A stretch of 64,000 bases of DNA from an uncultured bacterium (GCA_964442615.1 CAYUAG010000004.1:3922-67921), one strand, 5' to 3'. Counted from the first letter of the stretch, positions 1,327 through 47,915 are shown. A program made the numbers and translations. The notes: a model not told the origin generated them from the sequence alone.

Positions 1327-2703
1327 CTATTTCACCGATACTCTACTGACAAGATACCGTAATGTTTCATCTTTGTTGGTGTTAGCAAATAGCAGTCCCG
1401 GTTTGTCAGTTTGGGGATCATGCACAGCCAGCTTCACATTATATTCACCTGTGGAAATATTCTCCGGAACAAAAATTGAAACAGTTTCTATCCAGGTGCC
1501 AGGAAGCCATTCCCGAATATCAATTCCTGTTTCCTGTTCTACAACAGTACTTCCCTGCTCATCAACAAAATAAATTACTACCGGCCACTGAAAGTAAAAA
1601 GGAGCTACCCCTTTATTTTCAATCTGAATATCAAACTCAAAATCATCTCCCTGGTTCACATCACCATCATGTTCAAAGCTCTGAATTACAAACCTATATC
1701 CTAGAGTTTTATGCAGTAATTCAAGATTCTCCCTGTGTTCTTCACTCTGGGGTTGAATTGCTCCTCCGGCTGTTCCCATAAAAGACCAGTGAGTCTGCTG
1801 TATAAAACTAAAATTAAGATCAAAACGTTGGGTGGTACCAGCTATGGCACCCTGCTCACTACCGCAAAACTCTCCGGTTATGATTGCTGTTTTCCAGATC
1901 CGGTCATTAAGAGTAGGATCGATTCTATTCAAACTTTCCAGATACCAGTTATTTGATTCAGCAGTACCCAAACAATCATTGCGAATACCGCCACTCAGAT
2001 CAGTAACATATTTAGTGGCAAAATCATCATCAAAGGCAATTACTTTTGGTTTAGTGGGAAAGGCCTGAAAATAATCCTCAAGAATGCTTTGCTTTGTCCC
2101 CTGAGTAGCAGCCAGACTATCATTGAGCCAGACATGCCATTCCCCCCAGAAACCGTAGGATCCAATATCTATCCAGGCTACTCGGGGATCTTGATCATAC
2201 CGACTGCCAAGAGCCATGATAAAATCATGATGGGCAGCAAGAAAGGTTGAATCATCCCAGTCAGGAGCCAGACCCTGATGTCCGTCAATAGAATATGGTC
2301 GCATTGCCACTCCCTGGTCAATCAGCCACTGGGGTGTGTCATCCTGTCCTGATCCAGGTATACAGGCAGCAATACGGAATCCGACTTTTTTTCCGGTCTT
2401 TTGGACATTACCCCAGTTCTGTTCCAGTCTTGCCCAATTATATACATATTGCTGAGGCTGAAGATCTCTCCAGGCAAAGGTAGCATATTGCAGTTTTTCA
2501 TTGAATATGGGATTAGTATCCCCTATCCAGGGAGCAAAACCTTTAAAAGGATTTTCCAGGGGATCATCAATTTCAACCAGTTCTATCTCTGCTAATTCTG
2601 CCGCAGTTGGGTTGTCTTTACAGGAAAAAAATCCTTTTAAAAATATACTAATTAGTAAAATCATAATTATAAAATAAATATTTTTTTTGTAATAAAATTT
2701 CAT
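1327..2703 (-). CDS. Exported lipoprotein, clan GH-A-like TIM-barrel glycosidase candidate with C-terminal beta-sandwich (DUF4874/DUF4832-like; 'GEWH' subfamily)
   Basis: 458-aa ORF. Lipobox ...GFFSC. 'FAWRDLQPQQYVYNW' resembles the W..lEP..G.y.w opening of GH42/GH35-type barrels. Contains the motif WIDIGSYGFWGEWHVW. The C-terminal 'WLPGTW..VSIFVPENISTGEYNVKLAVHDP' looks like an Ig-like domain. Paralogue of 13489-14946. Confidence 0.6.
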   Translation of the reverse strand: MKFYYKKNIYFIIMILLISIFLKGFFSCKDNPTAAELAEIELVEIDDPLENPFKGFAPWIGDTNPIFNEKLQYATFAWRDLQPQQYVYNWARLEQNWGNVQKTGKKVGFRIAACIPGSGQDDTPQWLIDQGVAMRPYSIDGHQGLAPDWDDSTFLAAHHDFIMALGSRYDQDPRVAWIDIGSYGFWGEWHVWLNDSLAATQGTKQSILEDYFQAFPTKPKVIAFDDDFATKYVTDLSGGIRNDCLGTAESNNWYLESLNRIDPTLNDRIWKTAIITGEFCGSEQGAIAGTTQRFDLNFSFIQQTHWSFMGTAGGAIQPQSEEHRENLELLHKTLGYRFVIQSFEHDGDVNQGDDFEFDIQIENKGVAPFYFQWPVVIYFVDEQGSTVVEQETGIDIREWLPGTWIETVSIFVPENISTGEYNVKLAVHDPQTDKPGLLFANTNKDETLRYLVSRVSVK

Positions 2704-2720
2704 GACACTACTTTCTTTTT

Positions 2721-4889
2721 TTATTTTAATGAAATGAGAGCTAATCCATAAATACTTTTCAAATCAAGAGAAAATGAAATCAGAGTTTTTCCATTCAGTT
2801 TGATTTTTTTAAAAGGAATTGATTCCATCTGGAAAAGAGAACCACTGAAGCGAACAGTAGTAATCTCTTTATTTTCAGGAATAAGAATCTGAAGATTCAA
2901 TTCCCCTGGCGGTGTAATAGTACCATCTACAGTTACATTATAATTAACCAGATGAACCAATAGCAGATTTTGAGCCTCATTATTCATTACAGTCATTTCA
3001 ACAAAGGGTGAGCCCTTTATTTGTGAATATCTTCTTTTCAGCACTGACACGACTCTATTGGTGGTTAAATCCAATATATTCCGTAATGCTGGATGAATGT
3101 TACCACGAGTATAGGCCTCAGGAATGTCCGGAAACACATCAAACATAGCAGGACCAAAGGTTGTTACTTTTCCCTTTTTATTTGCTCTGGTTAAAAAACC
3201 TGATTCAGGAATGGTAAGAGGAATATAATGGATAAATCCCTTTCCCCAGGATTTATGTACAGATGATTCTGGATAGGTCTCAGTTTCCAAAAGTGCAAGT
3301 AAAGGAACTTTGTCATACGGTACATTATACTGATTCTTGACTCCTGAAGATCCAAGTATCAATAATTCACCGCCTGATTTGACATATGAAATTAGAGTAT
3401 TCTGTAATTCCCTGCTGAGAAGCGGCAGATAGGGAAGGATAATCATATCCATTTTCTGCAGCTTCTTAGATTGAAAAAGATCACTCTCAACCAGCATTAT
3501 ATGCCCGATTCCCCGGTCAGCAAATATCCTGGAAAGACTGAAGGAAAAGCTAAGTTCATCAGCCAGATACTGGTTCAAGGAAGCTAAAATTCCAATATTA
3601 CTCTCTAAATGAGCACCGCTCAAATAAATTTCATTTTCAGCTAAAAACCGATGAATTTGAGTGGCACCTTTCGGGGTTTGCCGTTTTTCCCGGAATACAC
3701 AATGATTTGCTGCCGCCTCAGCTATATTGATTTGGGCCATTGCACTGAGAGCTTTTTCTGTGGGTTCGGGAAATATTGGTGGTGTAATTTCTATGGCATA
3801 TTCTATAACTGGCTTACTGTTGCAGGCTGCAGCTAAAAATTTCAGGGCAGGACTATTGGTAATTTTTACTCCTCTTATATCTTTTCTGGGAGCTGAATCT
3901 AAATATTCCTGTATTTCTGAGTAGATAAAATCATCAACTTTGCCTAACATTTCCATATTACCGGCTGCATCATAGGCAATAGGACCATATCCGAATCCAC
4001 CAAATACATTACCTGAGATCATAAATTGGGGATTAACTTCCCTGGCAGCTGTACGCAATTTTTGATGAAATTGAGCTACTGAATTACTCCTGAACTGCCG
4101 GAATTCCATCCAGAAGTTATCTCCTTTTTCTTGCGGTAGTTCCACAGCACTGTAATCAGATGAGGCATATTTTTTTTCAGCCATTTTCTTTGGTAAGTGT
4201 TTTTGTAAATAATCCCTGAATGCCTGAACACAGTATTTACAGTAACAGGTACTGCCTGCAATATGTGTCCAGTCAACATAGGATCCGTCTATACCGGTCT
4301 CAGCCTGCGCTCTGATCCGTCCTTCCATCATCCGTACATAATAGGGATTATTGGGACACCCCCAGGTTTCGAATCCCTGGTCTGTTTCCCGACCATAGGG
4401 GGCGTAACGATAATAGGGAAAGCTACTATCCGCATGAATAGTAATCCAGGTACTAGGATCCTCTGGGGGTTTGGGGCCGATATAATCTTCAAAATCATTC
4501 CAGCGGTTATGATAAAAATCTAGCAGGTGGATCTGATCCTTTTGCGGTTCCGAGGTTCGGGTCTCACTCTCACCGTTAAGAGAGGTGGAAAGATACCGCA
4601 GTACAATATACCCGCTGTCGTGATAAGTTTTATTGAAATCCTTAGCCTTTTCCATCTCCAGTTCAAATTCTTTTCTATCCACGTATTCAAAATTCGGCGC
4701 TCCGCTTCCAAAGGTGACGGTAAATCCGTTTTTCTCCAGAAACTGAAAATCAGACCGATGACCCAGCCTCCAGTGACCCCAATCAGTATTGGGTTCCCAG
4801 GAGGTATCAGATAATTTCCCGCATGAAAGTATTAAAATTAATATGCCTGCAGCACACAAAGAAAATGTCGAGCTTATGATACCTTTCAT
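2721..4889 (-). CDS. Exported lipoprotein with GH42-like architecture: TIM barrel with Cys cluster plus GATase1-like middle domain plus beta-sandwich
   Basis: 722-aa ORF. GGGAGG SD upstream; lipobox LILSCG. Cys178 (WGCPNN) plus C215-x-C217-x-x-C220 (STCYCKYCVQAFRDYL) resemble the GH42 zinc site. 'MIILPYLPLLSRELQNTLISYVKSGGELLILG' resembles the GH42 trimerisation/GATase1-like domain. Paralogue of 14985-17183. Confidence 0.55.
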   Translation of the reverse strand: MKGIISSTFSLCAAGILILILSCGKLSDTSWEPNTDWGHWRLGHRSDFQFLEKNGFTVTFGSGAPNFEYVDRKEFELEMEKAKDFNKTYHDSGYIVLRYLSTSLNGESETRTSEPQKDQIHLLDFYHNRWNDFEDYIGPKPPEDPSTWITIHADSSFPYYRYAPYGRETDQGFETWGCPNNPYYVRMMEGRIRAQAETGIDGSYVDWTHIAGSTCYCKYCVQAFRDYLQKHLPKKMAEKKYASSDYSAVELPQEKGDNFWMEFRQFRSNSVAQFHQKLRTAAREVNPQFMISGNVFGGFGYGPIAYDAAGNMEMLGKVDDFIYSEIQEYLDSAPRKDIRGVKITNSPALKFLAAACNSKPVIEYAIEITPPIFPEPTEKALSAMAQINIAEAAANHCVFREKRQTPKGATQIHRFLAENEIYLSGAHLESNIGILASLNQYLADELSFSFSLSRIFADRGIGHIMLVESDLFQSKKLQKMDMIILPYLPLLSRELQNTLISYVKSGGELLILGSSGVKNQYNVPYDKVPLLALLETETYPESSVHKSWGKGFIHYIPLTIPESGFLTRANKKGKVTTFGPAMFDVFPDIPEAYTRGNIHPALRNILDLTTNRVVSVLKRRYSQIKGSPFVEMTVMNNEAQNLLLVHLVNYNVTVDGTITPPGELNLQILIPENKEITTVRFSGSLFQMESIPFKKIKLNGKTLISFSLDLKSIYGLALISLK

Positions 4890-4951
4890 AAAAACCTCCC
4901 TTCTAAAGCTTTAAAAATTATATTAAAGAATGAATATCTTTACTAAACATG

Positions 4952-6247
4952 CTATTTTACTCCCATTTCCGGCAGCACATCCAACGCCTTTTGGGCTAAT
5001 TCCTTGGCTTTGACAGCGGCTGTGGCTACAAAAATTTTGCGGGAGGAATGAGGCATGAATCCTCGACCGTCGCTGTTCTCTGACAGCATTAATTGATGTC
5101 GGGCTTCCTCTAAAATTATCCGTGATTTGGACACATTAACTCCCATCTTTTCTGCAAAATCAACCAGGTGGGTTGCCATGGCAATCTCATCATTGGCCTG
5201 TTCCATAAGAATATTGAGTCGTTCCCGCCCTTCTCCCCGGAGCCAGGTATCAAAATCGGCATGTCCTGAAATATTTTCAGCATAAATCATCTTTTGGGGA
5301 GGATGTGTCTCAATATATTCCCCCATGGTCATAAATTTGGCATAGGGAAGACTCTCCAGCATGGTCAGTTTCTCATCCATCCACTGGATTGCCGGGAGAC
5401 TGGGAAGAGAATCTCCCCAGGAATAGGCGATATCCTCAGGAAGATGTTCACCCCAGGTGAGTTTGGATCCCGCACGTTCATTCAGAACATCAAAGGAGTG
5501 CAGGTAGATGACCTCAGCATCATCCTTAAAGGCCACCAAAAATTCATCAATGTTTTCCTGTTTCAACTTCTGGTACAAAGCGTCCAGACGCTCTTTTAAT
5601 TCTTCCACACTTCCCTGATCCAGAGAATTGGTACAGAGCACAACCTTAGCCTTGGTATTATTTATTCCCTCAATATAAGCAGTAGGAGGATATAAAAGTT
5701 TATCTTGGTATTCAGGAACAATTTCTTTATAAATTGAGACCCATTCTATACCTACTTCTTTCATGATCTGGGGTAAGCATACATCCCAGGATACCTCAGG
5801 TAGGAACAGACCCTTAGGACGGATGTCCCACACCTTCTGATCGGATTCCAGACCCCTCCGAAGCTGCTGGATAACATTATCATATGGAATCAGGGAAAGC
5901 ACAGGATGGGTATAGGTGTAGGTACCGATGTTATACTTACCCCTTTCATAGGACTTTTTTACCCTCTCTACAAAAGTTGGAAAATGTTCCTGCAGATATT
6001 CACTTGTATATCCGCTGAAGAAAAAATCTGCCTTAACCCGTTTATGTTTATCAAAAATATCAAGAAGCGGAATATGTCCTTGGGTAACCATAATATCGGT
6101 TTTGTCTACCGGAAACTCAGCAAAATTTAAATTGAAATTAAAATTATAGGTAAAATAAATTACCGGCTCACCGCTGTAAACCAGGGAAATACCTCCAGTC
6201 ATAATACATATTAAACCTTTAATAATACTATATTTATACATTTTCAT
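4952..6247 (-). CDS. GH57-like / polysaccharide-deacetylase-fold glycoside hydrolase candidate, secreted
   Basis: 431-aa ORF with AAGGAGA SD. 'GTYTYTHPVLSLIP' and 'PKGLFLPEVSWD' resemble the GH57 conserved regions (H-P-I-L-P-L and the G-x-W-x-x-E nucleophile region). N-terminal hydrophobic signal. Confidence 0.45.
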   Translation of the reverse strand: MKMYKYSIIKGLICIMTGGISLVYSGEPVIYFTYNFNFNLNFAEFPVDKTDIMVTQGHIPLLDIFDKHKRVKADFFFSGYTSEYLQEHFPTFVERVKKSYERGKYNIGTYTYTHPVLSLIPYDNVIQQLRRGLESDQKVWDIRPKGLFLPEVSWDVCLPQIMKEVGIEWVSIYKEIVPEYQDKLLYPPTAYIEGINNTKAKVVLCTNSLDQGSVEELKERLDALYQKLKQENIDEFLVAFKDDAEVIYLHSFDVLNERAGSKLTWGEHLPEDIAYSWGDSLPSLPAIQWMDEKLTMLESLPYAKFMTMGEYIETHPPQKMIYAENISGHADFDTWLRGEGRERLNILMEQANDEIAMATHLVDFAEKMGVNVSKSRIILEEARHQLMLSENSDGRGFMPHSSRKIFVATAAVKAKELAQKALDVLPEMGVK

Positions 6248-6403
6248 AAAATTTCTCCTTGTAATGAATTTATAAATGCCAAAATTTTTAGGTTTATTTT
6301 TATTGACCTTATTTATTATTGATCATTTTCTTGCTTATCTTCATTATTGGAATGAGTATTGTTATCAATATCGGTTTAATCATTAACTAAAGAGTACATG
6401 ATT

Positions 6404-7516
6404 TCAAATTCCAGGTATCCATTTTTCAATATTATATCTGAAAATCTTTGCAACTACATTTTTGTGCAATTTTAGACCTTGAAATTCACCTTCCAGTTCT
6501 GGTGCAGTCATAGTATCTTCAGTAACAAAATATCTCCATGCCGCCACCCATCTTTCATGCATGTGTTCCATTAACACATCAATATCACTGACTCCGCTGA
6601 CACTCAATCCGGAACCAAAATCTGAGCCATATAGAATTCTGTCCTGATATTTAATGATAAAATCCCGTACTCTGTCCCTATCCTGCTGACTTTGTACTTG
6701 CAGATGACAAATTCGTTCAGCAAGATCAACCGCCAGATTAGGAAATGCATCAAATCTTTCAGCCAACTCATCCACACTCCATTCCAGACTGGCAAGATGA
6801 CAGCCAATGAATTTTAAATCCGGATTTTTACGCAGCATTGCATCTCTGGCATCAATTATTTCCTGATAGGAAGAATATTCCGGATGTTTGTACATATGAT
6901 ATTCAGGATGCATTTTAAAATAAGCCTGATCGCTCTTAACAGTCATCTGTTCAATCGGGAGCCAGCAGTTTTTAGGCTCTCCGATATGCCCGAATAAAGG
7001 TATGTTGTGTTCTGCAAGATAGGAGAATATGGGATTAAATTTCGGATCATCTAGCATCACAAAATTACCTTCTTCATCCTTTGCAGTCATGCCGATATTC
7101 TTCCAGACTTTAACTGCAAGCGCACCTTTTTCAAATGAATCCTTTAAATAATCCAAAGTCTTCTCCTGCCAACGAGGATCATTAAATCCCTTCATACTGA
7201 ATGATGTCGCATAGTTTATTCTGTCTTTATATTTCTTCTTTAATTTGAGTACAATTTCCTGTTGTTCCGGAAGACTTACAAAATTTGGTACATCCGTATT
7301 AAGTGAAAATAGCCGGAAATTATCCTGCTTGGCTTGTTCCAGCCAGGCCGGATCATCTGTTCTCAAATGCATATGCGCATCAATTTTTTCAAATATTTTG
7401 AAATCTTCCATAGTAAAGGTATTATTCGAATCCCTACAATAAGAAAAAAACCCTAACAAAATAGCCATGCTGCTTATCAAAAAAAGTTTTCTAAAATTAT
7501 CTTTGCTCCATTTCAT
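6404..7516 (-). CDS. Exported Amidohydrolase_2-type metal-dependent hydrolase (TIM barrel), lipoprotein
   Basis: 370-aa ORF with AAGGAAG SD. Lipobox-like LGFFSYC. 'KIDAHMHL' H-x-H metal motif near the N-terminus and later 'ILYGSDFG' Asp motif. Paralogue of 7576-8643 and 28974-30071. Confidence 0.7.
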   Translation of the reverse strand: MKWSKDNFRKLFLISSMAILLGFFSYCRDSNNTFTMEDFKIFEKIDAHMHLRTDDPAWLEQAKQDNFRLFSLNTDVPNFVSLPEQQEIVLKLKKKYKDRINYATSFSMKGFNDPRWQEKTLDYLKDSFEKGALAVKVWKNIGMTAKDEEGNFVMLDDPKFNPIFSYLAEHNIPLFGHIGEPKNCWLPIEQMTVKSDQAYFKMHPEYHMYKHPEYSSYQEIIDARDAMLRKNPDLKFIGCHLASLEWSVDELAERFDAFPNLAVDLAERICHLQVQSQQDRDRVRDFIIKYQDRILYGSDFGSGLSVSGVSDIDVLMEHMHERWVAAWRYFVTEDTMTAPELEGEFQGLKLHKNVVAKIFRYNIEKWIPGI

Positions 7517-7575
7517 ATATTACTTCCTTTCACATATATTTAAATAACAAATATTGAGAGTAATCATCTCAATAA

Positions 7576-8643
7576 TCACTGTACATCATATCCCAATTCT
7601 AAAAGCTGCTCTTTTACATGAGGATATATTCTTGCAGCATTCTGATAATAAATTTTTTCCAATACATCACGGGGAAGCAAAAGTCCCTGAGTTGGATTCA
7701 TACTAAAAAAACCGCCTTCAACTCTTTCATCGGTTTCCAGTATTTTAAAAGTCCGGATATATTGTTCAGTACGGGATTCTGCTTCTTCAGGATTTTTAAA
7801 AGCACTGATATCTGTCCCGTATAGGATCCTGTCCACCCATTCAATCATAAATGCCCGGAGATTCTCACGATCCAGTAAATAATAATACTGAAAGGTAGCA
7901 GCGAGATCAACATTGAAATTGGGAAATGTTGCAAGCATGTTACGTAAATAATCAAGCTGTGCATCCTGACACACCAGCCAGTCACCATGTGCAGCAACTG
8001 CAATTAAATCAGGATGCCTTTCTAATACATGCCTCCAGGCAGTAATTTCTCTCCAGTATTCTATAGGATCTGAAAGCCATTTTGTACGGTTACCATATGG
8101 TCCATTGGGATCTGCAATATGTATCGATGCTGCAACCATGCCGATTCTTTCCATTTCTGCAAATGTAGGTTCATGCACCAAATTGTCTATGTACCGGAAT
8201 CCCTCCTCTCCTTCTTCAAGTTTCCGAAAATATGGACCTGCCCAAATCTTATATCCGATATAGCCCTTTTCAAGCCAGGTATGCAAATCTTTAGGCGGAT
8301 TATCAAGACCATCATGTGCAGAAAAATCTGATATACAGGGGAGCACCCGGCCTTTACTGACCTGCCGGGATTTATGTAAATCTGGAATCTGATTTTCACT
8401 TGTTCCAAGATCAATCCACATAGCAAGATCTGTATCATACGTATCCTGTAATATCTCTCGCATTTTTAAGAAATTCACCATACCGACACTATCACCACCG
8501 ATATGAGTGTGGACATCAATTCTGGGTATTTCCGGATATTTAGAATATTTCTGTGCATATATATTTGTAGATTTAATTGCTATCATAGATAATAAATAGA
8601 TAGCAATAATCAGTATGATGATAAAATTTTTCTTCTTTCGCAT
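7576..8643 (-). CDS. Exported Amidohydrolase_2-type metal-dependent hydrolase
   Basis: 355-aa ORF with AAGGAG SD. Sec-type signal (MRKKKNFIIILIIAIYLLSMIAIKSTNIYAQ). 'RIDVHTHIGGD' H-x-H motif and 'ILYGTDIS' motif. Confidence 0.7.
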   Translation of the reverse strand: MRKKKNFIIILIIAIYLLSMIAIKSTNIYAQKYSKYPEIPRIDVHTHIGGDSVGMVNFLKMREILQDTYDTDLAMWIDLGTSENQIPDLHKSRQVSKGRVLPCISDFSAHDGLDNPPKDLHTWLEKGYIGYKIWAGPYFRKLEEGEEGFRYIDNLVHEPTFAEMERIGMVAASIHIADPNGPYGNRTKWLSDPIEYWREITAWRHVLERHPDLIAVAAHGDWLVCQDAQLDYLRNMLATFPNFNVDLAATFQYYYLLDRENLRAFMIEWVDRILYGTDISAFKNPEEAESRTEQYIRTFKILETDERVEGGFFSMNPTQGLLLPRDVLEKIYYQNAARIYPHVKEQLLELGYDVQ

Positions 8644-8703
8644 TTTCGTACTCCTTATTTTTTAAGTTTTTTATGTGTAAAATATTTCTTTTTTTCAAAA
8701 AAA

Positions 8704-9447
8704 TTATTTACCAAATTTCAATAACCCAAATTTTCTAGGGACATGAAAATTGGATACAGTAGGAGACCAAGCATACCAGCTGGATTGATCATTCCGGTCT
8801 CTGTTTATGCGGTAATAATTGATTTTCCATTGAGTCTCTTCAAAGTTCAACTTTTCTGAATTACCCATTAGTTCTCTAAAAGGCACAGCAATCTCAACTG
8901 TCCATTTTTTATCTATATCGGCTTTATTGTTAAGCGTCCCCTCAATCTGTACAGCAGTCTGAATACCTGAGAGATTAAATTCTGCTGTCTGTGCTATATC
9001 AATATTTGCAGGCTTTTCAATATAGCTGTCAAACAGTACATTATAAGGGGAAACTTCGATTTCAATATATGTATCAGGATTATTATCTGTGTCAATGAAA
9101 ACCTCCACCACCTCCTGCTTCCAGAGACTTTCATCCCGTTCTGTGTAGTTGCTCCATATATCAGGATCATTACATTCGAACGCGATGTACAGATTTTGCC
9201 CGTCATGGCACGATTTGGTCCATGTTTTTATCGCTTCATCTTCAACTGACTTACCCGTTTTATTAGTTTTAAGCGTTAACGTTTCTGCGCGTTCCCAGAC
9301 AGATTCGTCCAGCACGCCATCGATGATAATGCTTTTATCGCATCGAGTTGCGATATACGTATAGTCTAAGTGAGTGTCCTTCCGCACACACTCAACAAAG
9401 AGAAGGCTAAGTAAAAAACAAATAACTACGATACAATTTATCCGCAT
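8704..9447 (-). CDS. Secreted CBM9-like carbohydrate-binding protein
   Basis: 247-aa ORF with GAAGGAG SD and a signal peptide. 'IIIDGVLDESVWERAE' is the typical CBM9/DOMON-like opening motif. No catalytic domain is apparent. Confidence 0.5.
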   Translation of the reverse strand: MRINCIVVICFLLSLLFVECVRKDTHLDYTYIATRCDKSIIIDGVLDESVWERAETLTLKTNKTGKSVEDEAIKTWTKSCHDGQNLYIAFECNDPDIWSNYTERDESLWKQEVVEVFIDTDNNPDTYIEIEVSPYNVLFDSYIEKPANIDIAQTAEFNLSGIQTAVQIEGTLNNKADIDKKWTVEIAVPFRELMGNSEKLNFEETQWKINYYRINRDRNDQSSWYAWSPTVSNFHVPRKFGLLKFGK

Positions 9448-9492
9448 AGTGGTACTCCTTCATACACCCTTTAAAAAGAGAATAAGCACTAA

Positions 9493-10776
9493 TTACGCTT
9501 CGGTCGAAATATCTATTTGAACTTCTTTTTTAGCAGGCATCCTTTCAAGTTGAATCGTATACTCATAATCCGATTCTCGCTGCATTTTACTCTTTTTGAG
9601 AATTTTAATAGAGTCCGATTTAAATGATACCTGCACAGGACTTTTTATTTTGAGTGTTAGTGCACCACGTCCCAATATTCCAGGCAGTGTATCGACCATC
9701 TTAAAATCGAGTTTAACCGCTTTACCAGTCACATTTACTTTTACACATACATGCTGCACAAGTTGATGCCGAAAAGATAAAGAATTCGGCGCCAGCATTG
9801 TATCAAATCCATCGTTATACGGCTTCAGGAGTTTCACCCATCCATCAACGATTTCAGAATTTCGTTCCGGATTTGGGTGCAAAAGATTAGGCCAGTGCAT
9901 ACCGCATGTGGGCCCGTGCACCACGCCTTCCGGCACTTTCCCAATTGATTTCCAGGAAAGCAAATCGCACCCGCGATCCACGGTAATCACCCCGGCGTCA
10001 AATCCAAATACACCGTGCTGCACACCTTCAGCATTATACATATCATCAAACGGCGTGTTAATGTACTCCACGCCTCGCTTTGCGAGTACAGCTGCCATGC
10101 TGAGTTCATAGTCGCCAGTGGGACCGAATCCGTGCAGGAATGCAGTAGGTACAAATGATTTTGGGAATTGTCCTAAATCGTGCTGCTGCAACAACGCCTC
10201 GTAAAAATCCAGATGTTTCTCAACTTGATCGAGAGGCCGCATTGTGCCGCTTCTGTCGGCCCACTCAGCGCGGGTAAACGTGCCATCCGTCCAATACTCG
10301 TGGCCTATGCCATGCAGCGTCAGTTCGTAATGATATCGATTTTGTCGAATAATGTCGGCAGCCTCTTCCATCCAGGGACCAATCCATTTTTTATTGTCCC
10401 ACTTTTGGCCCATCCAGGTGCTGGTGGGCAGTTTGCGCAGAATATTCTCTTTATCCCATTCACACAAAATCGTCGCAGCTTGCGGGCGGATGCCTAACCT
10501 GCGGCCTAAACGAGCGATGGCTTCGTAATCTGCAGGCACATGCTTGCGGAGTATGCCGGTGCGATAAGGTTCCTGCCACTTACTCCCGTCCTGTCCGGAC
10601 CACCAGCCGACATCGTCAATTACCACTTGAATCGGCATGGGTATCACGGCAGCAATTCCCAATTCATTTTTATTTGATGCACACCCCAAAATACCTGAGG
10701 CTGCGCCTCCCAGCGTTAATCCTGCGCTCAGCTGGGCGGACTTTTTAATAAATTCTCTCCTATTCATATTCAGCAT
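9493..10776 (-). CDS. Tat-exported protein, polysaccharide-deacetylase-like (7-stranded barrel) candidate
   Basis: 427-aa ORF. Twin-arginine signal MNRREFIKKSAQLSAGLTLGGAASGILGC. 'VVIDDVGWW' (DD motif) and 'LHGIGHEYW' (H-x-x-x-H) resemble CE4/DUF2334-type metal motifs. This is the first gene of the visibly GC-richer stretch. Confidence 0.35.
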   Translation of the reverse strand: MLNMNRREFIKKSAQLSAGLTLGGAASGILGCASNKNELGIAAVIPMPIQVVIDDVGWWSGQDGSKWQEPYRTGILRKHVPADYEAIARLGRRLGIRPQAATILCEWDKENILRKLPTSTWMGQKWDNKKWIGPWMEEAADIIRQNRYHYELTLHGIGHEYWTDGTFTRAEWADRSGTMRPLDQVEKHLDFYEALLQQHDLGQFPKSFVPTAFLHGFGPTGDYELSMAAVLAKRGVEYINTPFDDMYNAEGVQHGVFGFDAGVITVDRGCDLLSWKSIGKVPEGVVHGPTCGMHWPNLLHPNPERNSEIVDGWVKLLKPYNDGFDTMLAPNSLSFRHQLVQHVCVKVNVTGKAVKLDFKMVDTLPGILGRGALTLKIKSPVQVSFKSDSIKILKKSKMQRESDYEYTIQLERMPAKKEVQIDISTEA

Positions 10777-10802
10777 TGTAACAATCCTTTGAAATAATCT
10801 GC

Positions 10803-11120
10803 TTAGGGCTTAGTTTCTTTGAATTCCATAACATTCGACGCCTCTTGACTGCTCACTACCTCAAAAACTCGTAGAAAAATATTCGTCCCTGTCTTCTCCT
10901 CCCACATATCCTTGTTTGCAAAGCGTATCGAATAACGTGTATCATCATGGAGAGTCGGTTCCGGGTCTGGCATACGAATTCCAAGCGAGTATGTACCTGC
11001 CAGAATCTGCGCAGGAACACTCAGCGCCGTTTTCACCGTTATCTGTTCACCGGCGCCCCAAAAACGCGGCTCTTCTGCAAGTACGGCAACGTGCTCCTCG
11101 GTAGGTTCCACTTCGCACAA
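10803..11120 (-). pseudogene. Remnant of the C-terminal beta-sandwich of a DUF4832-like paralogue (catalytic barrel missing)
   Basis: The ORF-track start is TTG (rc of caa at 11118-11120). There is no in-frame ATG before codon 50 and no SD. An in-frame stop lies two codons upstream, and only 58 nt separate it from the preceding gene. 'WGAGEQITVKTALSVPAQILAGTYSLGIRMPDPEP...IRFANKD' aligns by eye with 'WLPGTWIETVSIFVPENISTGEYNVKLAVHDPQTDKPGLLFANTNKD' of 1327-2703. Confidence 0.55.
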
Positions 11121-11178
11121 ACTTGTTTAGAAATTAATTTAACAACTTCTTTTCACTCAATATTGTCACACATTCAAT

Positions 11179-13386
11179 TTAATTGATTGTGATAATGTCA
11201 TAGATTTCTAAATAGGGTATCGTTAATTCTATTTGATTTTCATGCACGGATATCTTTTTCACTTCATTCAGGGCTGAATCCGGCGAATATAACTGAATTT
11301 TACTCGCATTAGTCTCCTTTACAATATCTTCCAGATGTAAGGTAACACGGACATTATTAACCGGTTTTGAATAATTAACCAAATGAACAAAAATACGATC
11401 TGAGTCATCCTTTTTAATAACATTCGCGATGACATACTCCGCATTATGAACTTCAATAATCGGCTGCGGACAAAGCTGTCGCAAATTCGCGAGGAATTCC
11501 ATTCGCAATACATTCTCATGAGTATTGTGGCACACATATGCAGGAGAGTAAATTGATGCTAACTCGCGTAATTTTTCGCAACTGCCCAGTGTATACACTT
11601 TACCGCCCGCTGCAATATGTTTTCTGATGACATCAAGCTCCTTATCTGCAATCCAGGGGATGTCGGGAATGATAATCGCTTCATATTTGGATAACATTTT
11701 TTCTGTTATTCGAGGCAGCAACAACACATCATACATGACATTCATCTCGGCGAGTGCATGATAGAGTTGCACTCGTTTTACGGACACTTCAAAACTTGGA
11801 ATGACCGGTAGCGCCAATAATCCAATTTTGCTTACGGTAGTAACATCTGTAAAAAGCTCCTCGTGCTCATCAAAGAATTTATTGTACTGACAGATGTCAT
11901 CCCATACTTTCATGGCCGTTGCGTTATTTTTCATTACCCATCCATTGAAAAGATTGCGTCCGGCTTCGGCGATCACAAAATCGGATTGGAATGCTTTAGC
12001 CTCCGCCATGGGTCGTTTCCAACCGATTTTCATTCCATCCACTACATTGTGCGCTCCGGGATTTGGCACGCCCGGATCGGCGCCCTCATATTTGCTGCGA
12101 TATGGTTTCCAGCCATCACCGGCTGCATAATAAAATCGAGCCTGCACGACATTATGCACCCAACGTTCGTCCCACACTCCAGCCTCTTCGGTGCCTTCTG
12201 ACTTGCCGATATCGCAAATACCATCCGCGATGATATTGCCTTTGCAATTGCCAAACACGGTGATATTCATTCCGCGTTTGTCAATGAGATCCTGCGTATC
12301 TTTAAAGAATTGCACGATACCTTTTGTCCCGCCGATTGCCCAATCGTAGTATAATTCATCCACGCCCGCATCAATGGCGATATCCGCGGTTTTTAACACC
12401 CGATTACGATAATCTTTATTCGTCAAATCCGGCCAGTAACTGCTCCCTCTGCGGCGCTGGCGTGGATTGCCGTACTCATCACGACTGATCCATGCGTTCA
12501 TCTCTGGATTCGCATCAACACTGTCCGCGCTTATTGAATTCAGCCGGATAGGCTGCCGCCCTGCGCCTCCATCAAATGTCACGCGTATACCATTCGCGTG
12601 ACAACGATCGATGAAGGTCGTATATCGCTTGAACTCCTCGCTGGAAGTGTCCTCCGGTGTCGCAACTTGCAGCATAACAAGATTAAAATTACCTTCAATA
12701 AACATCTCAAACATGCGATCAAGGTGATCGAAATCAATGCCGGCCCGATAATAGCGTACCTTACCGCGTTGCGCCCATTCCGGTAAATCAGATTCCTTCC
12801 TCCTGCCTTCGCCTTTGTAATTTACGACATAATCAAAATCATCAATGCGCGGCGAACCTCCGCGAGTGACTGCACGATACGTAAGCTGCGCGACTTTTGC
12901 CTCTTGTACGGTGACGGATGTTATTCGCGCATCAGTTACCCTGAAACCGTCCGCATCGGTAGTTTTATGGAAAACAATCCTGTTCACGCCGTCATGAATA
13001 TGTTCTAATGAAAGCGGCAGCACAATTTTGCCGAGCAGTTCATCACTGCCGTTGGACGTATACCAGCCTTCCTTGCCGGATTGCTGGGCGGTTACTTCTT
13101 TCTCTTGTGGTGCAGAACCTGGAAGCGCAGGAAGGTCATATCGGTTTCCGTTTACCAGCACATATCCTTCTTTTTCATCCAGACCTCTGGCCAGAAATAC
13201 GAGTCCCGGATTTGTAAGGCTGCCCTCTTCTGGAATAGTGACAACATATACTTTTACGCCTTCTGCAGCATCCTGCTCACTAAGACACTGATAATATACT
13301 GTTCGTGCTTTCTCACAGCCCCCCACAACAAAAATCGCACGAACCATTGTAACGACTAATAAAACACTCATTAATTTATTTTTCAT
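11179..13386 (-). CDS. Exported lipoprotein, glycoside-hydrolase-like TIM barrel plus GATase1-like middle domain (GH42-like architecture, no Cys cluster)
   Basis: The ORF track gives 11179-13473. I prefer ATG at 13386 (MKNKLMSVLLVVTMVRAIFVVGGC, lipobox) with GAGGAAAA SD. 'GVDELYYDWAIGG' is a barrel motif. 'YEAIIIPDIPWIADKELDVIRKHIAAGGKVYTLGS' is the middle-domain signature. The C-terminal 'IFVHLVNYS' is shared with the 722/732-aa paralogues (LVHLVNYN, FVHLVNYN). Confidence 0.5.
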   Translation of the reverse strand: MKNKLMSVLLVVTMVRAIFVVGGCEKARTVYYQCLSEQDAAEGVKVYVVTIPEEGSLTNPGLVFLARGLDEKEGYVLVNGNRYDLPALPGSAPQEKEVTAQQSGKEGWYTSNGSDELLGKIVLPLSLEHIHDGVNRIVFHKTTDADGFRVTDARITSVTVQEAKVAQLTYRAVTRGGSPRIDDFDYVVNYKGEGRRKESDLPEWAQRGKVRYYRAGIDFDHLDRMFEMFIEGNFNLVMLQVATPEDTSSEEFKRYTTFIDRCHANGIRVTFDGGAGRQPIRLNSISADSVDANPEMNAWISRDEYGNPRQRRRGSSYWPDLTNKDYRNRVLKTADIAIDAGVDELYYDWAIGGTKGIVQFFKDTQDLIDKRGMNITVFGNCKGNIIADGICDIGKSEGTEEAGVWDERWVHNVVQARFYYAAGDGWKPYRSKYEGADPGVPNPGAHNVVDGMKIGWKRPMAEAKAFQSDFVIAEAGRNLFNGWVMKNNATAMKVWDDICQYNKFFDEHEELFTDVTTVSKIGLLALPVIPSFEVSVKRVQLYHALAEMNVMYDVLLLPRITEKMLSKYEAIIIPDIPWIADKELDVIRKHIAAGGKVYTLGSCEKLRELASIYSPAYVCHNTHENVLRMEFLANLRQLCPQPIIEVHNAEYVIANVIKKDDSDRIFVHLVNYSKPVNNVRVTLHLEDIVKETNASKIQLYSPDSALNEVKKISVHENQIELTIPYLEIYDIITIN

Positions 13387-13488
13387 TTTATTTTCCTCGA
13401 AGTAACTACTATTAGTTATAGATAGTGTTTTTTTATTATTAAGCTGCAATATGCCAAAAAAATCTTTAGGCATCGAATTTCAGAATTA

Positions 13489-14946
13489 TCATTTCCTCTT
13501 TGTCAAGGTCTCTTCCAAAGTGGCTAACTCAACGATATTTAAAGCAGTCCAGGAATACCAGTTTTGTGCATCACCGCCGCTTACCGCCAGTTTTATCACC
13601 GGATTCTTGGTATAGGGATCCAGCATAGCGAAGTAAACTATATAACGTCCCGGTTCTGCATTATCCGGAATAGTAATGGATGCTGTTAATTTATGCCGAC
13701 CAGGAAGCCACTTCAGCACATCCCAGTCAATCTCTTTACGAGTCAGCATTGTTTTACTGCCTCTGCTGCCGGCTCTGCGAATTTCAAATACCGGAATATA
13801 TGCTCGATACGGAGGTGCAACCCCAATGTTATCTATGGCCATTTCAACATCCAGATCGCTGCCGGGTTCCAGCCACTTCTGGTGACGGAATAATCGTACA
13901 ACCAATCTATACCCCATGCGCTTAAGAAATTTTTCAGTAGCCGGCCACCATTCCGGAGGGATATTACTCGATTTGTTATTGAGAATGGATGTATGCAGCT
14001 CCAGACAAACGCTGTAAATATACTCAATGTCTCTGCCAGCTTTAAGCCAGCTTTCAAAAGTACCGCAGGTTTCAAAGGCTACCGGACGTGTTTTCCAGGC
14101 TTCTCCCACTGATGGATACTTTCTTGGAAGCTGTAAATAGCGGGTCATAAGATTCCAGTGATTCGGCGACCCGTAATCGCCCATACAATCCGCCCGCCAG
14201 CCGGTACCATTTTTTGTTGCATAGGTCAATCCGTCTTCCGCATCCTCCGGTATGACCAGGGGTGTCTTATTGAAACCTTCCAGATACCAGTCGATAATCA
14301 TCTTTTTGATATCAAAAGAATACCGTTCTTTTTCCTCTACAAAACTTAAATGCCATTCTCCCCAGTGGCCGTATGAGCCAATATCAATATGATCGATATC
14401 CGGATGGCCGTCATAGCGTTTTGCAAATTCCCTGACCAATCTACCCATATATTTTGCATAAAGTGGATCCGCATGATCTGGCATCCAACTGGCAATATCC
14501 CTACCAGCGTGCTGAGTGCTCTCCGCAATAAATTCCCATCCTTTAGCTCCGGTTTTACGATACCAGTCAGGGATTCTGGGACGTCCGTTAGCAGGCATAA
14601 TACGCGTTGCCAGTCGCTGTCCGCGGGCATGGACCTCCGACAGTACCGAATCCACCATATCCCAGTTAAATTTACCTTTTTTGGATTCCAGTTCATCCCA
14701 ATACCAGCGATAGTAGGCAATTGAACATTCCGGATAACCGGGAACATCCCCGTCCAAAGCTCCATGGGTGGTAAATCCCATTCCTGGATTAACCAGCACT
14801 TTATCTAACTCCGGGGGAGAAACGACCACAACATTCGGTACTCCTTTAGCTTTAATTATCTCTACAAATGGTTTAACTTGTGCATTGCTGATGGATAACA
14901 TCACTCCCCCAAGAAAAAATGAAAGGAAAACAATTAATTTTTTCAT
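13489..14946 (-). CDS. Secreted DUF4832-like TIM-barrel glycosidase candidate ('GEWH' subfamily)
   Basis: The ORF track gives 13489-14973. Start preferred at 14946 (MKKLIVFLSFFLGGVMLSISNAQ) behind GAGGA. 'YYRWYWDELESKKGKFNW', 'HIDIGSYGHWGEWHLS' and the C-terminal 'WLPGRHKLTASITIPDNAEPGRYIVYFAMLDP' support the call. Confidence 0.6.
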   Translation of the reverse strand: MKKLIVFLSFFLGGVMLSISNAQVKPFVEIIKAKGVPNVVVVSPPELDKVLVNPGMGFTTHGALDGDVPGYPECSIAYYRWYWDELESKKGKFNWDMVDSVLSEVHARGQRLATRIMPANGRPRIPDWYRKTGAKGWEFIAESTQHAGRDIASWMPDHADPLYAKYMGRLVREFAKRYDGHPDIDHIDIGSYGHWGEWHLSFVEEKERYSFDIKKMIIDWYLEGFNKTPLVIPEDAEDGLTYATKNGTGWRADCMGDYGSPNHWNLMTRYLQLPRKYPSVGEAWKTRPVAFETCGTFESWLKAGRDIEYIYSVCLELHTSILNNKSSNIPPEWWPATEKFLKRMGYRLVVRLFRHQKWLEPGSDLDVEMAIDNIGVAPPYRAYIPVFEIRRAGSRGSKTMLTRKEIDWDVLKWLPGRHKLTASITIPDNAEPGRYIVYFAMLDPYTKNPVIKLAVSGGDAQNWYSWTALNIVELATLEETLTKRK

Positions 14947-14984
14947 CTTTATCCTCATTATTTCATAGTTCATAGCTAACCACG

Positions 14985-17183
14985 CTACTCATAATACACA
15001 GTTACCAAACTGTATACTTCGAATGTCGGTATTTCAAATTCAATAAACTGTTCTTTTTTATTGAATGATATTTTTTTAGTGTCATAGAGGGGCGATCCAA
15101 TTGTAAGTCGAGATACCTTCTTGCCTTCCGGAACCATAAGCCTCACTTTCACATTCTCTGCAGGTTTTACTTCACCGTCCAGATTCATGTTATAATTTAC
15201 CAGATGAACAAACTGCAGGTCTTTCTCTTTCTGTTTCATGGTGGTGAATTCAACTGTATAAGGTGCGGACAACTTGCCGGACAATTTTCCTTCAGCTGCC
15301 CATTCTACTGCCTCAGGAATCGCCTCAAAGGAAGCTCTGATTCTTGCAGGAAATTTGCCCTGGCCGTACATCATATGATCATCAGGCAGCGGCGTGCGCC
15401 TGGTGTCGCCTTTTCCTACCGGCAACGGATTAAATGGAATGAAAACTACCTTCCCTTTTCCGACATCTTTTTTGGTGACTTCCACAGGCGTATCCTGTAA
15501 ATCAAATCCTAATACATCGGACAAACCGAGATTTTTTCTTCGCAGACCATTTTCATCTTTAAAGGATGAAAGGCCGAGTACAACCAGGCCGCCGCCGTTA
15601 TTCACATAGTCTTTTATGGTCTCTACCTCAAAATCACTCAGGAGTGGTACATACGGCAATACCAGTACTCTGTATTTTGCCAACTCCACTGGACTAAAAT
15701 CCCGCTCCACGGTCATCACGTGCGCAATACCGTTATCCGCTAACACTCGCGAGGCGGGATTAAAATAACTGAACTCATCGCTGTAAAACTGATTAATTGA
15801 ACAAAAAATCCCGACATTGGCGGCAAGCTTTGCGCCAATCAAATTCTTCTCATTTTTCTCAAAAAACGCATAAATCTGTTCCGCGCCGTTATGCACCATC
15901 GGAGAAATTGGTTCTCCAAATGTTTCTCGTACTACACTAAAGGTATTGTGATTGGCAAAAGCTTCACCGATATTGAGTTTAATCAGGTTAAACAGCGCAT
16001 TTTCATTCGGGATTGGTTTGGGTGTTGATGGCTGGACACAGTACATCCAGACGGGTTTCTGCATAGCAGCGGCAGCCAAAAATTTCAGCGGTCCTGAATT
16101 ACTGATTTTGATACCCTCTTCTGTACGGGGAACTGACTGTAAACCATGTTGAATTTCCGAATAGAAAAAATCCATAACAGTGCCCATTAACTCCATATCA
16201 TCACCATTGGTATAAGCCATGTTGCCGTAGGCACCTCCGTTTATATTTCCGGATATGAGAAAATCCGGATTGATTTTACGGGCAGCTGTACGCAATTTTC
16301 TCTGAAACTCAGTTAATGACCAGCTTCTGAACTGCAGCCATTCCCGCCAAAGAGCCATAGTGTTATCGACCGGCGGCTCGATGTTGCTCACATCAGTGAT
16401 CCCATAACGCTTCTTTAAATACTCAGCAGATACTTTTTCCTGCAAATATTTTCTGAATGCTTTCTTTGTGTGCGGACAAAAACAGGTACCGCCGTGTACT
16501 TTAGTCCAGTCAATGTACGCACCGTCAAATCCTCCCAGTGCGATCAGTTTCAGCACACCTTTCATATATTGTACATAAGAAGGATTATCCTGACAGCCGA
16601 ACATTTCAAATCTGCCACCTGTACGCGGTGCATTAGGATGCCTGAAGCGATAATATGAGTATTTTATATTGTGTGTGTGCCGCGGCCATTTATCCGGACC
16701 CTCAGGCGGTTTGGGTCCAAAATATTCCTCGTACAATTCCCACAATCCGGGGGTTTGGTACACCTGGTTTAAACTCAATTCTTCGGATTTAGGAATATCT
16801 TCATATGTTTCACTACTGCCGCCCATGGCCATGGTAGTATAGGCGATAACATACATACCCTCTTCGTGAAATTTTTTCACTTTTTCTCTTGATTCTTTCA
16901 GCATTTTCTTAAACTCTGACAAATCAGTGATGTATTCACCCGTCTCTTTATCTTCTGGAAATATGATGGGACCGCCAGTTTGATTTACGGTTGCGTGTAA
17001 TCGGTTCAACAATTCAAAATTGCCATGCAATCTTACAATTCGTATATGCCCCCAGTCCCAGGGCCCCAATTTCGATGTTTCATTGTCGCTTCTTGACTGA
17101 GACATAACCGGATTTGTACTTATTGACAGGATTAATAAACCCAGTAAAGCGAATATCAGATATGTAAATGTTTTTATTCTCAT
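14985..17183 (-). CDS. Secreted GH42-architecture protein, paralogue of 2721-4889
   Basis: 732-aa ORF with GAGGAG SD and a signal peptide. 'LRTAARKINPDFLISGNINGG' versus 'LRTAAREVNPQFMISGNVFGG' matches at 15 of 21 positions. 'FGCQDN' plus 'GGTCFCPHT' form the Cys cluster. 'YRVLVLPYVPLLSDFEVETIKDYVNNGGGLVVLG' is the middle-domain signature. Confidence 0.55.
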   Translation of the reverse strand: MRIKTFTYLIFALLGLLILSISTNPVMSQSRSDNETSKLGPWDWGHIRIVRLHGNFELLNRLHATVNQTGGPIIFPEDKETGEYITDLSEFKKMLKESREKVKKFHEEGMYVIAYTTMAMGGSSETYEDIPKSEELSLNQVYQTPGLWELYEEYFGPKPPEGPDKWPRHTHNIKYSYYRFRHPNAPRTGGRFEMFGCQDNPSYVQYMKGVLKLIALGGFDGAYIDWTKVHGGTCFCPHTKKAFRKYLQEKVSAEYLKKRYGITDVSNIEPPVDNTMALWREWLQFRSWSLTEFQRKLRTAARKINPDFLISGNINGGAYGNMAYTNGDDMELMGTVMDFFYSEIQHGLQSVPRTEEGIKISNSGPLKFLAAAAMQKPVWMYCVQPSTPKPIPNENALFNLIKLNIGEAFANHNTFSVVRETFGEPISPMVHNGAEQIYAFFEKNEKNLIGAKLAANVGIFCSINQFYSDEFSYFNPASRVLADNGIAHVMTVERDFSPVELAKYRVLVLPYVPLLSDFEVETIKDYVNNGGGLVVLGLSSFKDENGLRRKNLGLSDVLGFDLQDTPVEVTKKDVGKGKVVFIPFNPLPVGKGDTRRTPLPDDHMMYGQGKFPARIRASFEAIPEAVEWAAEGKLSGKLSAPYTVEFTTMKQKEKDLQFVHLVNYNMNLDGEVKPAENVKVRLMVPEGKKVSRLTIGSPLYDTKKISFNKKEQFIEFEIPTFEVYSLVTVYYE

Positions 17184-23181: not shown

Positions 23182-23197
23182 ATTTGACTCCAATACT

Positions 23198-25216: not shown

Positions 25217-25307
25217 ACTATTCTCCTTTAATAACATTTTAATGGTAAAAGTAATTTTTTATCTGGAAAGATTGATCTGCAGTGATTGTTCCAACTGCAC
25301 TATCACA

Positions 25308-26849: not shown

Positions 26850-26881
26850 AAAGTCCACCTATTCAATAATTATTAACTAAT

Positions 26882-47870: not shown

Positions 47871-47915
47871 TACCTAAACCTCTCAATTTTTATTTCTGTT
47901 CATTTATTATCTTTC

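Follow-up and report, generated by a model that had tools for sequence, protein, structure and literature searches.

Paired GH42-like and DUF4832 genes in a glycan island of a KSB1-phylum bacterium: a broadly conserved pair, a lineage-restricted pair and a deletion scar

When genes for the same two kinds of exported barrel protein lie side by side repeatedly within one gene island, does each pair form a functional unit, or are the neighbours paralogues inherited together? This question is raised by a 64,000-nucleotide stretch of DNA (the window) from an uncultured KSB1-phylum sediment bacterium, which contains a glycan island of ~48 kb on a single strand. The preliminary description reported three modules in which a gene for a large protein of GH42-like architecture (L) directly precedes one for a smaller barrel (S), the third module being decayed, and took the repeated retention of this order as a sign of sequential enzymes or a complex. 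Its module coordinates and the minus-strand location of all L, S and fragment genes were correct (Table 1). L1-S1 and L2-S2 are real paralogous pairs, but the third module is the product of a deletion, so that three retained modules become one broadly conserved pair, one lineage-restricted pair and one deletion scar. We consider it fairly probable that L and S are exported glycosidase-like enzymes, that their paired genes are co-transcribed, and that they act on the same glycan without forming an obligate complex.

Table 1. Positions in the window and main properties of the genes discussed
Feature	Position	Strand	Description
S1	1327..2703	-	DUF4832, 458 aa; clan GH-A-like barrel and C-terminal beta-sandwich; YGFWGEWH; lipobox-like FFSC
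L1	2721..4889	-	GH42 architecture, 722 aa: barrel, GATase-like domain, beta-sandwich; lipobox-like ILSC at the N terminus
u427	9493..10776	-	Tat-signal protein; 3' of S3 or S2 gene in relatives; synteny anchor for deletion reconstruction
fragment	10803..11120	-	likely pseudogene; S3-type DUF4874+DUF4832 gene lacking its 5' part, last ~98 residues left
L3	11179..13386	-	distant L-superfamily member; extra N-terminal domain of ~210 aa (from 13386 start); no Cys insert; lipobox VGGC
S2	13489..14973	-	S1 paralogue, 494 aa (485 aa if start 14946); YGHWGEWH; Sec-type signal
L2	14985..17183	-	L1 paralogue, 732 aa; Sec-type signal
TAT527	17413..18996	-	Tat-exported distant S-family homologue (TAT signal by Pfam and NCBIfam); YGFWGEGH; immediately 5' of L2
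u827	20833..23316	-	827 aa; most constant L1 neighbour in other genomes, here 16 kb from L1
GHL679	23198..25237	-	fourth, distant L-like protein; GHL6/GHL10-type barrel
u516	25308..26858	-	second Tat-type distant S-family homologue; YGFWGEGH; immediately 5' of GHL679 gene
SusC-like receptor	40158-43139		TonB-dependent

The island encodes a TonB-dependent receptor, melibiase-like and GHL genes and CBM9, with DeoR, a SIS deaminase-like gene, PfkB and GatZ/KbaZ as catabolic or regulatory genes. Like the PULs (SusC/SusD) of Bacteroidota, it lines up many genes for exported glycosidase-like proteins in one direction, accompanied by a regulator, genes of sugar-phosphate catabolism and a TonB-dependent receptor of SusC-like type. 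In contrast to the PULs, its host belongs to KSB1, it encodes uncharacterised enzyme families, its conserved gene set includes a gamma-glutamyltransferase along with three exported Amidohydro_2 proteins, and no Pfam match to SusD was found among the scanned ORFs neighbouring the SusC-like receptor. All L and S members in the window carry export signals, and L, S, u427, u827 and TAT527 matched no NCBIfam model. The sequencing runs that contain DNA of the window are exclusively DNA metagenomes, with no RNA runs among them.

In total, the island holds four L-like genes and five S-like genes plus the fragment; two S-type barrels (TAT527 and u516) and the fourth L-type gene (GHL679) had been overlooked in the preliminary description. 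TAT527 and u516 gave no Pfam DUF4832 match, and their kinship to S was detected by hhalign against the S alignment (96.5%, E 9.5e-10 and 97.7%, E 1.9e-12, respectively). GHL679 showed weak Pfam matches to GHL10 and GHL6, a match of the L profile to residues 175-298, and 23% identity over 374 aa to an L2 orthologue by BLASTP (E 1.6e-10). Two further candidates were rejected: u427 is not an additional S-like barrel (hhalign probability 1%), and u827, which has no relative in the PDB, is not GH42-like, showing only a weak GATase1-like stretch (probability 25%).

L1 exceeded the Pfam cut-offs for GH42 (26.2 bits, cut-off 21), GH42M (27.4 bits, cut-off 25.8) and GLMA_2nd, and L2 those for GH42 (22.6 bits) and GH42M (32.0 bits). 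An AlphaFold model of L1 (pLDDT 84) matched GH42 beta-galactosidases over its full length (E 2e-22, TM 0.55-0.6), and the top structures in a Foldseek comparison with the PDB were GH42, with ~800 aligned columns. The predicted architecture resembles the three domains of Gan42B of Geobacillus stearothermophilus and of the Thermus thermophilus A4 beta-galactosidase, namely a (beta/alpha)8 barrel, a GATase-like 'trimerisation' domain and a C-terminal beta-sandwich, although identity to GH42 is only 10-14%. Most L members retain the GH42 zinc-site pattern (CxCxxC with an upstream Cys); 21 of the 24 aligned sequences have C178, C215 and C217.

D206, N294, E325 and E391 are invariant in the same alignment. 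Asp206 lies at a strand end, nine residues before the CxC motif, and is preceded by Val or Ile in all 24 sequences; it occupies, within Y(V/I)DWT, the position at which GH42 has the acid/base Glu of its Asn-Glu motif (end of strand 4), a correspondence placed by spacing and predicted secondary structure, not by superposition. With Asp at the presumed position of this Glu, hydrolase chemistry of L is not assured. E325 (YSE), which closes strand 321-325, and E391 (IAEA) are both candidates for the nucleophile, in GH42 a Glu ending strand 7. NCBI annotates some L relatives as 'beta-galactosidase' and others as 'alpha-amylase family protein'.

That L1 and L2 are paralogues is clear from their 37-38% identity (E 7e-126), and they share the motifs ILPY.PLLS...YV..GG.L..LG and VHLVNY. 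The preliminary description had extended these motifs and this architecture to L3, which BLASTP relates to L1 and L2 just remotely, through the C-terminal two domains only (E 1e-5 and 5e-9). By hhalign the relationship is domain-wide: the L3 family aligned with the L1/L2 family across the barrel and both C-terminal domains (99%, E 4e-18), pairing YYDW with YVDW, GNCKGN with SGNVFGG and KSE with YSE. L3 matched neither the GH42 nor the GH42M Pfam model, and it differs from GH42 in its missing Cys insert and added N-terminal domain. Its start is most likely at 13386, as its database twin P0121 has 735 aa. A single-sequence search of the PDB with L3 gave nothing useful, and a profile search gave marginal matches to GH42 domains only.

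Scores for DUF4832 (PF16116; gathering score 29.2 bits) were 85.0 bits for S1, 54.2 for S2 and 42.5 for the fragment. S1 and S2 are 27% identical (E 3e-46) and share YG.WGEWH. Although a sequence search of the PDB with S1 returned nothing useful, its predicted structure (pLDDT 88) matched best to clan GH-A enzymes with a barrel and beta-sandwich, including bacterial GH35 beta-galactosidases, GH39 (PslG) and GH158 (E ~1e-8, probability 1.0), at low TM-scores (0.35-0.4) and 10-13% identity. Two Glu are expected in the retaining enzymes of this clan; E188, which follows strand 175-179, and E278, which closes strand 275-279, would fit as a putative catalytic pair; all 24 sequences compared, S2 included, have both. 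In place of the Asn-Glu motif of the clan, S has G-E within WGEWH.

Published mentions of DUF4832 concern an accessory gene next to pel loci of Gram-positive bacteria (PMC7112168) and a gene of amphioxus attributed to horizontal transfer (PMC13350694). Our literature search for DUF4832 and DUF4874 returned no functional study, and otherwise mentions in passing. Here, three deep DUF4832 subtypes, of which S2 forms a separate deep clade in the DUF4832 tree and the intact S3 type combines DUF4874 with DUF4832, share a single island with the two Tat-exported WGEGH relatives, with the S1 subtype linked to a GH42-like gene next to it. In soil and peat metagenomes, distant DUF4832 members rarely had an L neighbour (3 of 52 assessable cases, one being the S3 gene of the relative L008).

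The third module was analysed by comparison with relatives that keep an intact S3 gene (L186 and L008). The fragment corresponds to residues 353-450 of the 450-aa L008 protein (tblastn, 57% identity, E 3e-32) and covers only positions 157-216 of the DUF4832 profile; upstream of about 11097, tblastn found no S3 sequence. Contig L186 retains the order L2-S2-L3-GH18-S3-u427, and L008 has S3-u427-CBM9, whereas the window contains no GH18 gene. In G001 and G003, genomes of the same genus, u427 directly follows S2, and both L3 and the fragment are absent. Because L186 preserves the longer arrangement, the GH18 gene and 78% of S3 were lost by the present genome; a deletion of ~2.5 kb removed the GH18 gene and the first 78% of the S3-type gene, joining L3 to the S3 tail. 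Contigs from four marine-sediment runs, assembled separately, span the S2/L3, L3/fragment and fragment/u427 junctions, which rules out an assembly chimera at the L3/fragment junction, and contigs of two runs carry a fragment variant with a 2-nt insertion behind 11059. The L3/fragment adjacency is therefore a deletion product, not a retained module, and the order was not retained three times as had been proposed; an S3-type gene follows an L3-type gene in only one of eight contexts.

The outcome was different for the other two pairs. Of 45 assessable S1 orthologues (pooled), 32 (71%) have L1 as their immediate upstream neighbour; in the S1-anchored metagenome sample this was the case for 21 of 30, with three more L1 genes within 2.4 kb. 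L1-then-S1 was found in KSB1, Calditrichota, Fidelibacterota/Marinimicrobia and other MAGs, across which the remaining neighbours are reshuffled. L2-then-S2 was observed in 6 of 9 cases (G000, G001, G003, G131, G133 and L186); L184 has L2 and S2 ~4 kb apart in reversed order, and G130 has S2 after TAT527 without L2. Judged by order, strand, short spacer and presence in distant genomes, L1-then-S1 is a conserved gene pair, L2-then-S2 is partly so, and L3-then-S3 is not. Intergenic gaps are 17 nt for L1/S1 (11-29 nt between the called genes of L001 and L004), 11 or 38 nt for L2/S2, according to which start of S2 is used, and 58 nt for L3/fragment.

Seen from L1, the association is much looser. 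In the genome sample, only 12 of 74 L1 orthologues (16%) had S1 downstream, 7 of 20 L1-bearing genomes (MAGs, which may be incomplete) had no DUF4832 match at all, and G006 has S1 without an L1 orthologue. Adjacent L1 was missing for about a quarter of S1 orthologues. An obligatory partnership is thus not supported. L1 directly follows u827 in 40 of 50 u827 orthologues. L1 is probably a core gene that usually stands beside u827, with S1 as an accessory nearly always riding behind L1.

Could such neighbours arise without specific meaning, simply because a dense, paralogue-rich island is inherited or transferred as a block? With the gene definition of the preliminary description, the chance of three L-then-S adjacencies was p = 0.0013. 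When all L-like and S-like genes were counted, this rose to p = 0.044, while adjacency of L and S in either order remained enriched (p = 0.003), indicating that the L-like and S-like genes of the island are interleaved non-randomly. Further S-like/L-like pairs also recur: TAT527 is paired with L2 in 6 of 8 TAT527 orthologues (it was directly upstream in all five L2 orthologues in a tally without the later-fetched L184 and L186), and GHL679 comes after u516 in 9 of 21 assessable loci. Block inheritance would account for the frequent occurrence of L1 without S1 and for the variable order of L2/S2 and L3/S3 between genomes. It does not readily explain why L1 stays upstream of most S1 orthologues in several phyla while other neighbours are reshuffled, and we regard it as possible but rather unlikely.

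Trees of the two families were compared for signs of co-divergence. L1 and S1 partners fall in the same shallow clades in both trees, and their pairwise distances are correlated (r = 0.70, Mantel p <= 5e-4, n = 34). Although partners thus co-diverged, the signal is not pair-specific: the correlation of L1 with u827 was r = 0.78, and that of S1 with u827 was likewise as strong as that of L1 with S1. Because it is no stronger than L1-u827, the L1-S1 co-divergence shows shared inheritance and no specific partnership, which also agrees with block inheritance. L1-then-S1 would be an old pair inherited along with the remaining cluster.

The same result bears on a physical L-S hetero-complex, for example a GH42-like trimer docking a DUF4832 barrel, with each paralogous pair a distinct holoenzyme. 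Tight spacing in the window and in L001 and L004, the strongly conserved gene order for S1, and export signals that match between partners in this genome (lipobox-like for L1 and S1, Sec-type for L2 and S2) are compatible with such a complex. However, the lipoprotein signal was rejected as a conserved pair-specific trait, since lipobox-like signals occur in only 7 of 24 L and 9 of 24 S orthologues; L-S fusion ORFs were absent from all 188 loci; and co-evolution does not exceed the cluster background. The L1 genes in genomes without DUF4832 and the scarcity of S1 behind L1 argue against an obligate complex, and the S1 genes without adjoining L1 likewise speak against a hetero-complex. An obligate complex is unlikely, and we give a hetero-complex of any such kind little credence. 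Our preferred reading is that L, a GH42-type three-domain enzyme, and S, a GH-A-type barrel, would be co-transcribed in each pair (gaps of 11-38 nt) and attack one glycan at different bonds or steps.

The parallel arrangement of the pairs might also reflect serial duplication of one ancestral L-S unit, the third copy having decayed in place. The family trees suggest parallel histories: L1 and L2 are nearer to each other than to L3, the L2 clade forming a long branch beside or within the L1 radiation, and S1 and S2 group against S3 and distant DUF4832 members with weak support (85/76). The S topology varies between trees, however, as a quick DUF4832 tree joined S2 with S3 instead (support 78). 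The gene immediately before S3 in L008 is of L3 type (L3c), but L3 of the window is orthologous to L3a and not to L3c, and in the intact relative L186 GH18 separates L3 from S3, an arrangement at odds with in-place decay, as is the rarity of S3 behind L3-type genes. Moreover, all splits are older than the sampled phyla. Orthologues of L1, L2, S1 and S2 in other phyla are 55-80% identical, far closer than the paralogues (27-38%), which excludes a recent tandem duplication within this genome. We consider serial duplication improbable. Under the co-transcribed enzyme pairs that we prefer, L2-then-S2 would be a second, older paralogous pair within a TAT527-L2-S2 triplet.

We know of no characterised member of either family. 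That S1 travels with L1 and L1 with u827, in a set beside amino-sugar/tagatose-type catabolic genes, provides a starting point for function and substrate; the glycan is possibly an amino-sugar polymer. A broader and more speculative proposal is that the L/S pairs, u827, gamma-glutamyltransferase, the WGEGH barrels, GHL679, the melibiase-like protein and Amidohydro_2 proteins constitute one conserved catabolic system of KSB1, Calditrichota, Fidelibacterota, Ignavibacteria and Acidobacteriota, directed at an abundant but unrecognised environmental glycan, perhaps of amino-sugar/galactosamine type, in which each GH42-like enzyme has a dedicated DUF4832-type partner. We hold this only tentatively; if true, it would describe glycan machinery built almost wholly from glycosidase families without a characterised member. 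The finding itself, a glycan island with paralogous genes for glycosidases, belongs to ordinary biology and is not a new kind of system. Both families are widespread: metagenomes of sediment and soil contain hundreds of their orthologues at 55-80% identity.

Of the three copies of a two-gene module listed in the preliminary description, each a larger GH42-architecture protein (L) followed by a smaller DUF4832 barrel protein (S), two are real pairs, L1-S1 and L2-S2, whereas the third is a deletion scar. That inventory was also incomplete, as further L-like and S-like family members had been missed. L1 and L2 are 37-38% identical (E = 7e-126) and S1 and S2 27% identical (E = 3e-46). All L and S genes and the fragment of the third copy lie within a long co-directional array, and export signals were predicted from sequence on all L and S members. 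When the whole MAG (3.58 Mb, 146 contigs, 86% complete) was searched, no further L1-type or DUF4832 genes were found in the rest of it.

Genes of the L and S families and associated features (window coordinates unless another contig is named)
Feature	Position	Strand	Description
S1	1327-2703	-	above DUF4832 cut-off; YGFWGEWH
L1	2721-4889	-	722 aa; above Pfam GH42 and GH42M cut-offs
S3 fragment	10803-11120	-	105-codon frame
L3	11179-13386	-	no match in Pfam scan; L-superfamily member by profile-profile comparison
S2	13489-14973	-	above DUF4832 cut-off; YGHWGEWH
L2	14985-17183	-	732 aa; above Pfam GH42 and GH42M cut-offs
TAT527	17413-18996	-	predicted Tat-exported distant S relative (hhalign 96.5%); YGFWGEGH; no Pfam domain
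Gamma-glutamyltransferase	19105-20796		
u827	20833-23316	-	827 aa; no family assignment
GHL679	23198-25237	-	distant L relative
u516	25308-26858	-	predicted Tat-exported distant S relative (hhalign 97.7%); YGFWGEGH; no Pfam domain
SIS and GatZ/KbaZ-like proteins	45611-48974		
GH18 gene	L186:6662-7873		between L3 and S3 in intact relative

By BLASTP, the likeness of L3 to L1 and L2 was confined to the last two domains. Comparison of the L3 family profile with that of the L1/L2 family extended it to the barrel and both C-terminal domains (99% probability, E = 4e-18), and the motifs YYDW, GNCKGN and KSE of the L3 family aligned with YVDW, SGNVFGG and YSE, respectively. From its start at 13386, L3 carries an extra N-terminal domain of ~210 aa, and it is devoid of the Cys-rich insert of L1/L2. 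In total, the island interleaves four L-like genes, five S-like genes and one S fragment. The probability of the window's L/S adjacencies arising by chance was p = 0.003 for either order and p = 0.044 for L-then-S. TAT527 directly precedes L2 and u516 directly precedes GHL679, the reverse of L-then-S.

The fragment after L3 corresponds to residues 353-450 of a DUF4874+DUF4832 protein that is intact, at 450 aa, in a relative, L008 (57% identity, E = 3e-32), and no match to this protein was found upstream of ~11097. An intact arrangement, L2-S2-L3-GH18-S3-u427, is present on metagenome contig L186, where L2, S2, L3 and u427 (a further window gene) are 76%, 72%, 63% and 60% identical to their window counterparts. 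As no GH18 homologue is present anywhere in the window, GH18 has been lost here, along with the first 78% of S3. This deletion, of ~2.5 kb, brought the S3 tail up against L3. In the two other same-genus genomes with the cluster, G001 and G003, u427 directly follows S2, and neither L3 nor the fragment is present in the cluster. Four marine-sediment runs, each assembled on its own, yielded contigs that span all three junctions (S2/L3, L3/fragment and fragment/u427). Contigs from two of these runs carry a 2-nt insertion (AA) at 11059 within the fragment, which would shift its frame and fits a pseudogene or relaxed constraint. In samples of eight contexts anchored on each of S2 and S3, an L3-type gene immediately preceded the S3-type gene in only one of eight. 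The third copy therefore does not count as a retained L-S module.

The adjacency of L1 and S1 recurs in other genomes. We compared two sets of 80 loci each, one of genome loci with an L1 orthologue (55-82% identical) as anchor, from Acidobacteriota, Calditrichota, KSB1, Ignavibacteria, Fidelibacterota and others, and one of metagenome loci with an S-family gene as anchor. In the latter, L1 was directly upstream of true S1 orthologues in 21 of 30 assessable loci and within 2.4 kb in three more; after pooling and de-duplication, L1 was upstream of S1 in 32 of 45. In soil and peat metagenomes, distant DUF4832 proteins had an L neighbour in only 3 of 52 assessable cases, one being the L008 S3. Viewed from L1, S1 was directly downstream at only 12 of 74 assessable genome loci (within 3 kb in three more), and 7 of 20 L1-bearing genomes, which are MAGs of uncertain completeness, had no DUF4832 match at all. 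Among 41 relatives, both families were patchy (seven genomes each) and co-occurred. Repeated adjacency had been taken to suggest a functional pair, either sequential enzymes or a complex, and this interpretation is partly supported. L1-then-S1 is indeed a conserved pair, probably co-transcribed and probably encoding enzymes for one glycan, but the partnership is not obligatory: S1 behaves as an accessory of L1. As for a physical L-S complex, the evidence points neither for nor against. The same cluster occurs in L009 (MWEH01000033.1, 'Firmicutes bacterium ADurb.Bin080'), with L1 and S1 76-77% identical to those of the window; the assignment of this MAG to Firmicutes is probably an error.

In other genomes (loci L003-L087), no gene accompanied L1 more constantly than u827, which was directly upstream at no fewer than 37 of 70 L1-anchored genome loci. 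Conversely, L1 directly followed 40 of 50 pooled, de-duplicated u827 orthologues, including nearly all of those from Acidobacteriota. In the window, u827 is 16 kb from L1, in the order u827-gamma-glutamyltransferase-TAT527-L2.

The L1 and S1 trees had their shallow clades in common, and pairwise distances were correlated across 34 linked pairs (r = 0.70, Mantel p ≤ 5e-4). The partners thus co-diverge, but no more strongly than either does with u827 (0.78 for both L1-u827 and S1-u827), so the correlation stems from the cluster being inherited as a whole and is not specific to the pair. Mapped on the L1 tree, S1 presence was clustered, yet at least 6-10 changes were needed. The DUF4832 tree had four deep clades (S1, S2, S3 and a distant group), and all of the L and S family splits are older than the phyla sampled. 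Since S2 and S3 were joined in a quick tree (78) and S1 and S2 in a careful one (85/76), duplication of an L-S unit is neither shown nor rejected.

L2 and S2 were adjacent in that order in G000, G001, G003, G131, G133 and L186 and not adjacent in G130 (TAT527-S2), L184 (S2-TAT527-GH109-x-L2) and L017. At L184/L185 (GCA_021734225, labelled Candidatus Marinimicrobia), L2 (15359-17635) is 80% identical to window L2, versus ~62% for L1. This disparity raises the possibility that the L2/S2/TAT527 block moved horizontally, and the GC-richer stretch of the window agrees (0.44-0.47 at 10-16 kb versus 0.34-0.39 at 1-4 kb).

The S1 model (pLDDT 88) consists of a (beta/alpha)8 barrel and a C-terminal beta-sandwich, with bacterial GH35 beta-galactosidases, PslG (GH39) and GH158 as best PDB matches (E ~1e-8). 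Two residues were invariant in 24 sequences including S2: E188, part of the WGEWH motif, and E278, which lies in TGEFCG at the end of a strand. The L1 model (pLDDT 84) aligned along its entire length with GH42 beta-galactosidases (E = 2e-22, TM 0.55-0.6), and D206, N294, E325 and E391 were invariant in the L family. D206, placed by its spacing to the Cys motif, occupies the position of the GH42 acid/base Glu, so the family is GH42-like in architecture but its active-site signature is not standard GH42. In the GH42-type Cys cluster, C178, C215 and C217 are mostly retained and C220 less consistently. In 3 of 24 L1-family sequences (alignment A3), Cys178, Cys215 and Cys217 are jointly replaced (V/I, S and D), which looks like coordinated loss of a putative zinc site.

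Starting at DeoR, the array passes a SIS amino-sugar-phosphate deaminase-like gene, PfkB and GatZ/KbaZ, then a TonB-dependent receptor, and extends to S1. The SIS protein is closer to GlmD/GlmS-type amino-sugar-phosphate deaminases than to AgaS, and the GatZ/KbaZ-like protein, at 567.7 bits, fell just short of the NCBIfam cut-off (568.8). The ORFs scanned yielded no catalytic aldolase subunit. In a relative (L007), L3 is linked to the same catabolic genes, and another cluster includes a GH109-like gene. Together, these associations suggest an amino-sugar-containing glycan as the substrate. Gamma-glutamyltransferase is a recurrent cluster member in several phyla, often beside u827, and is an odd component of a glycan-degradation locus.
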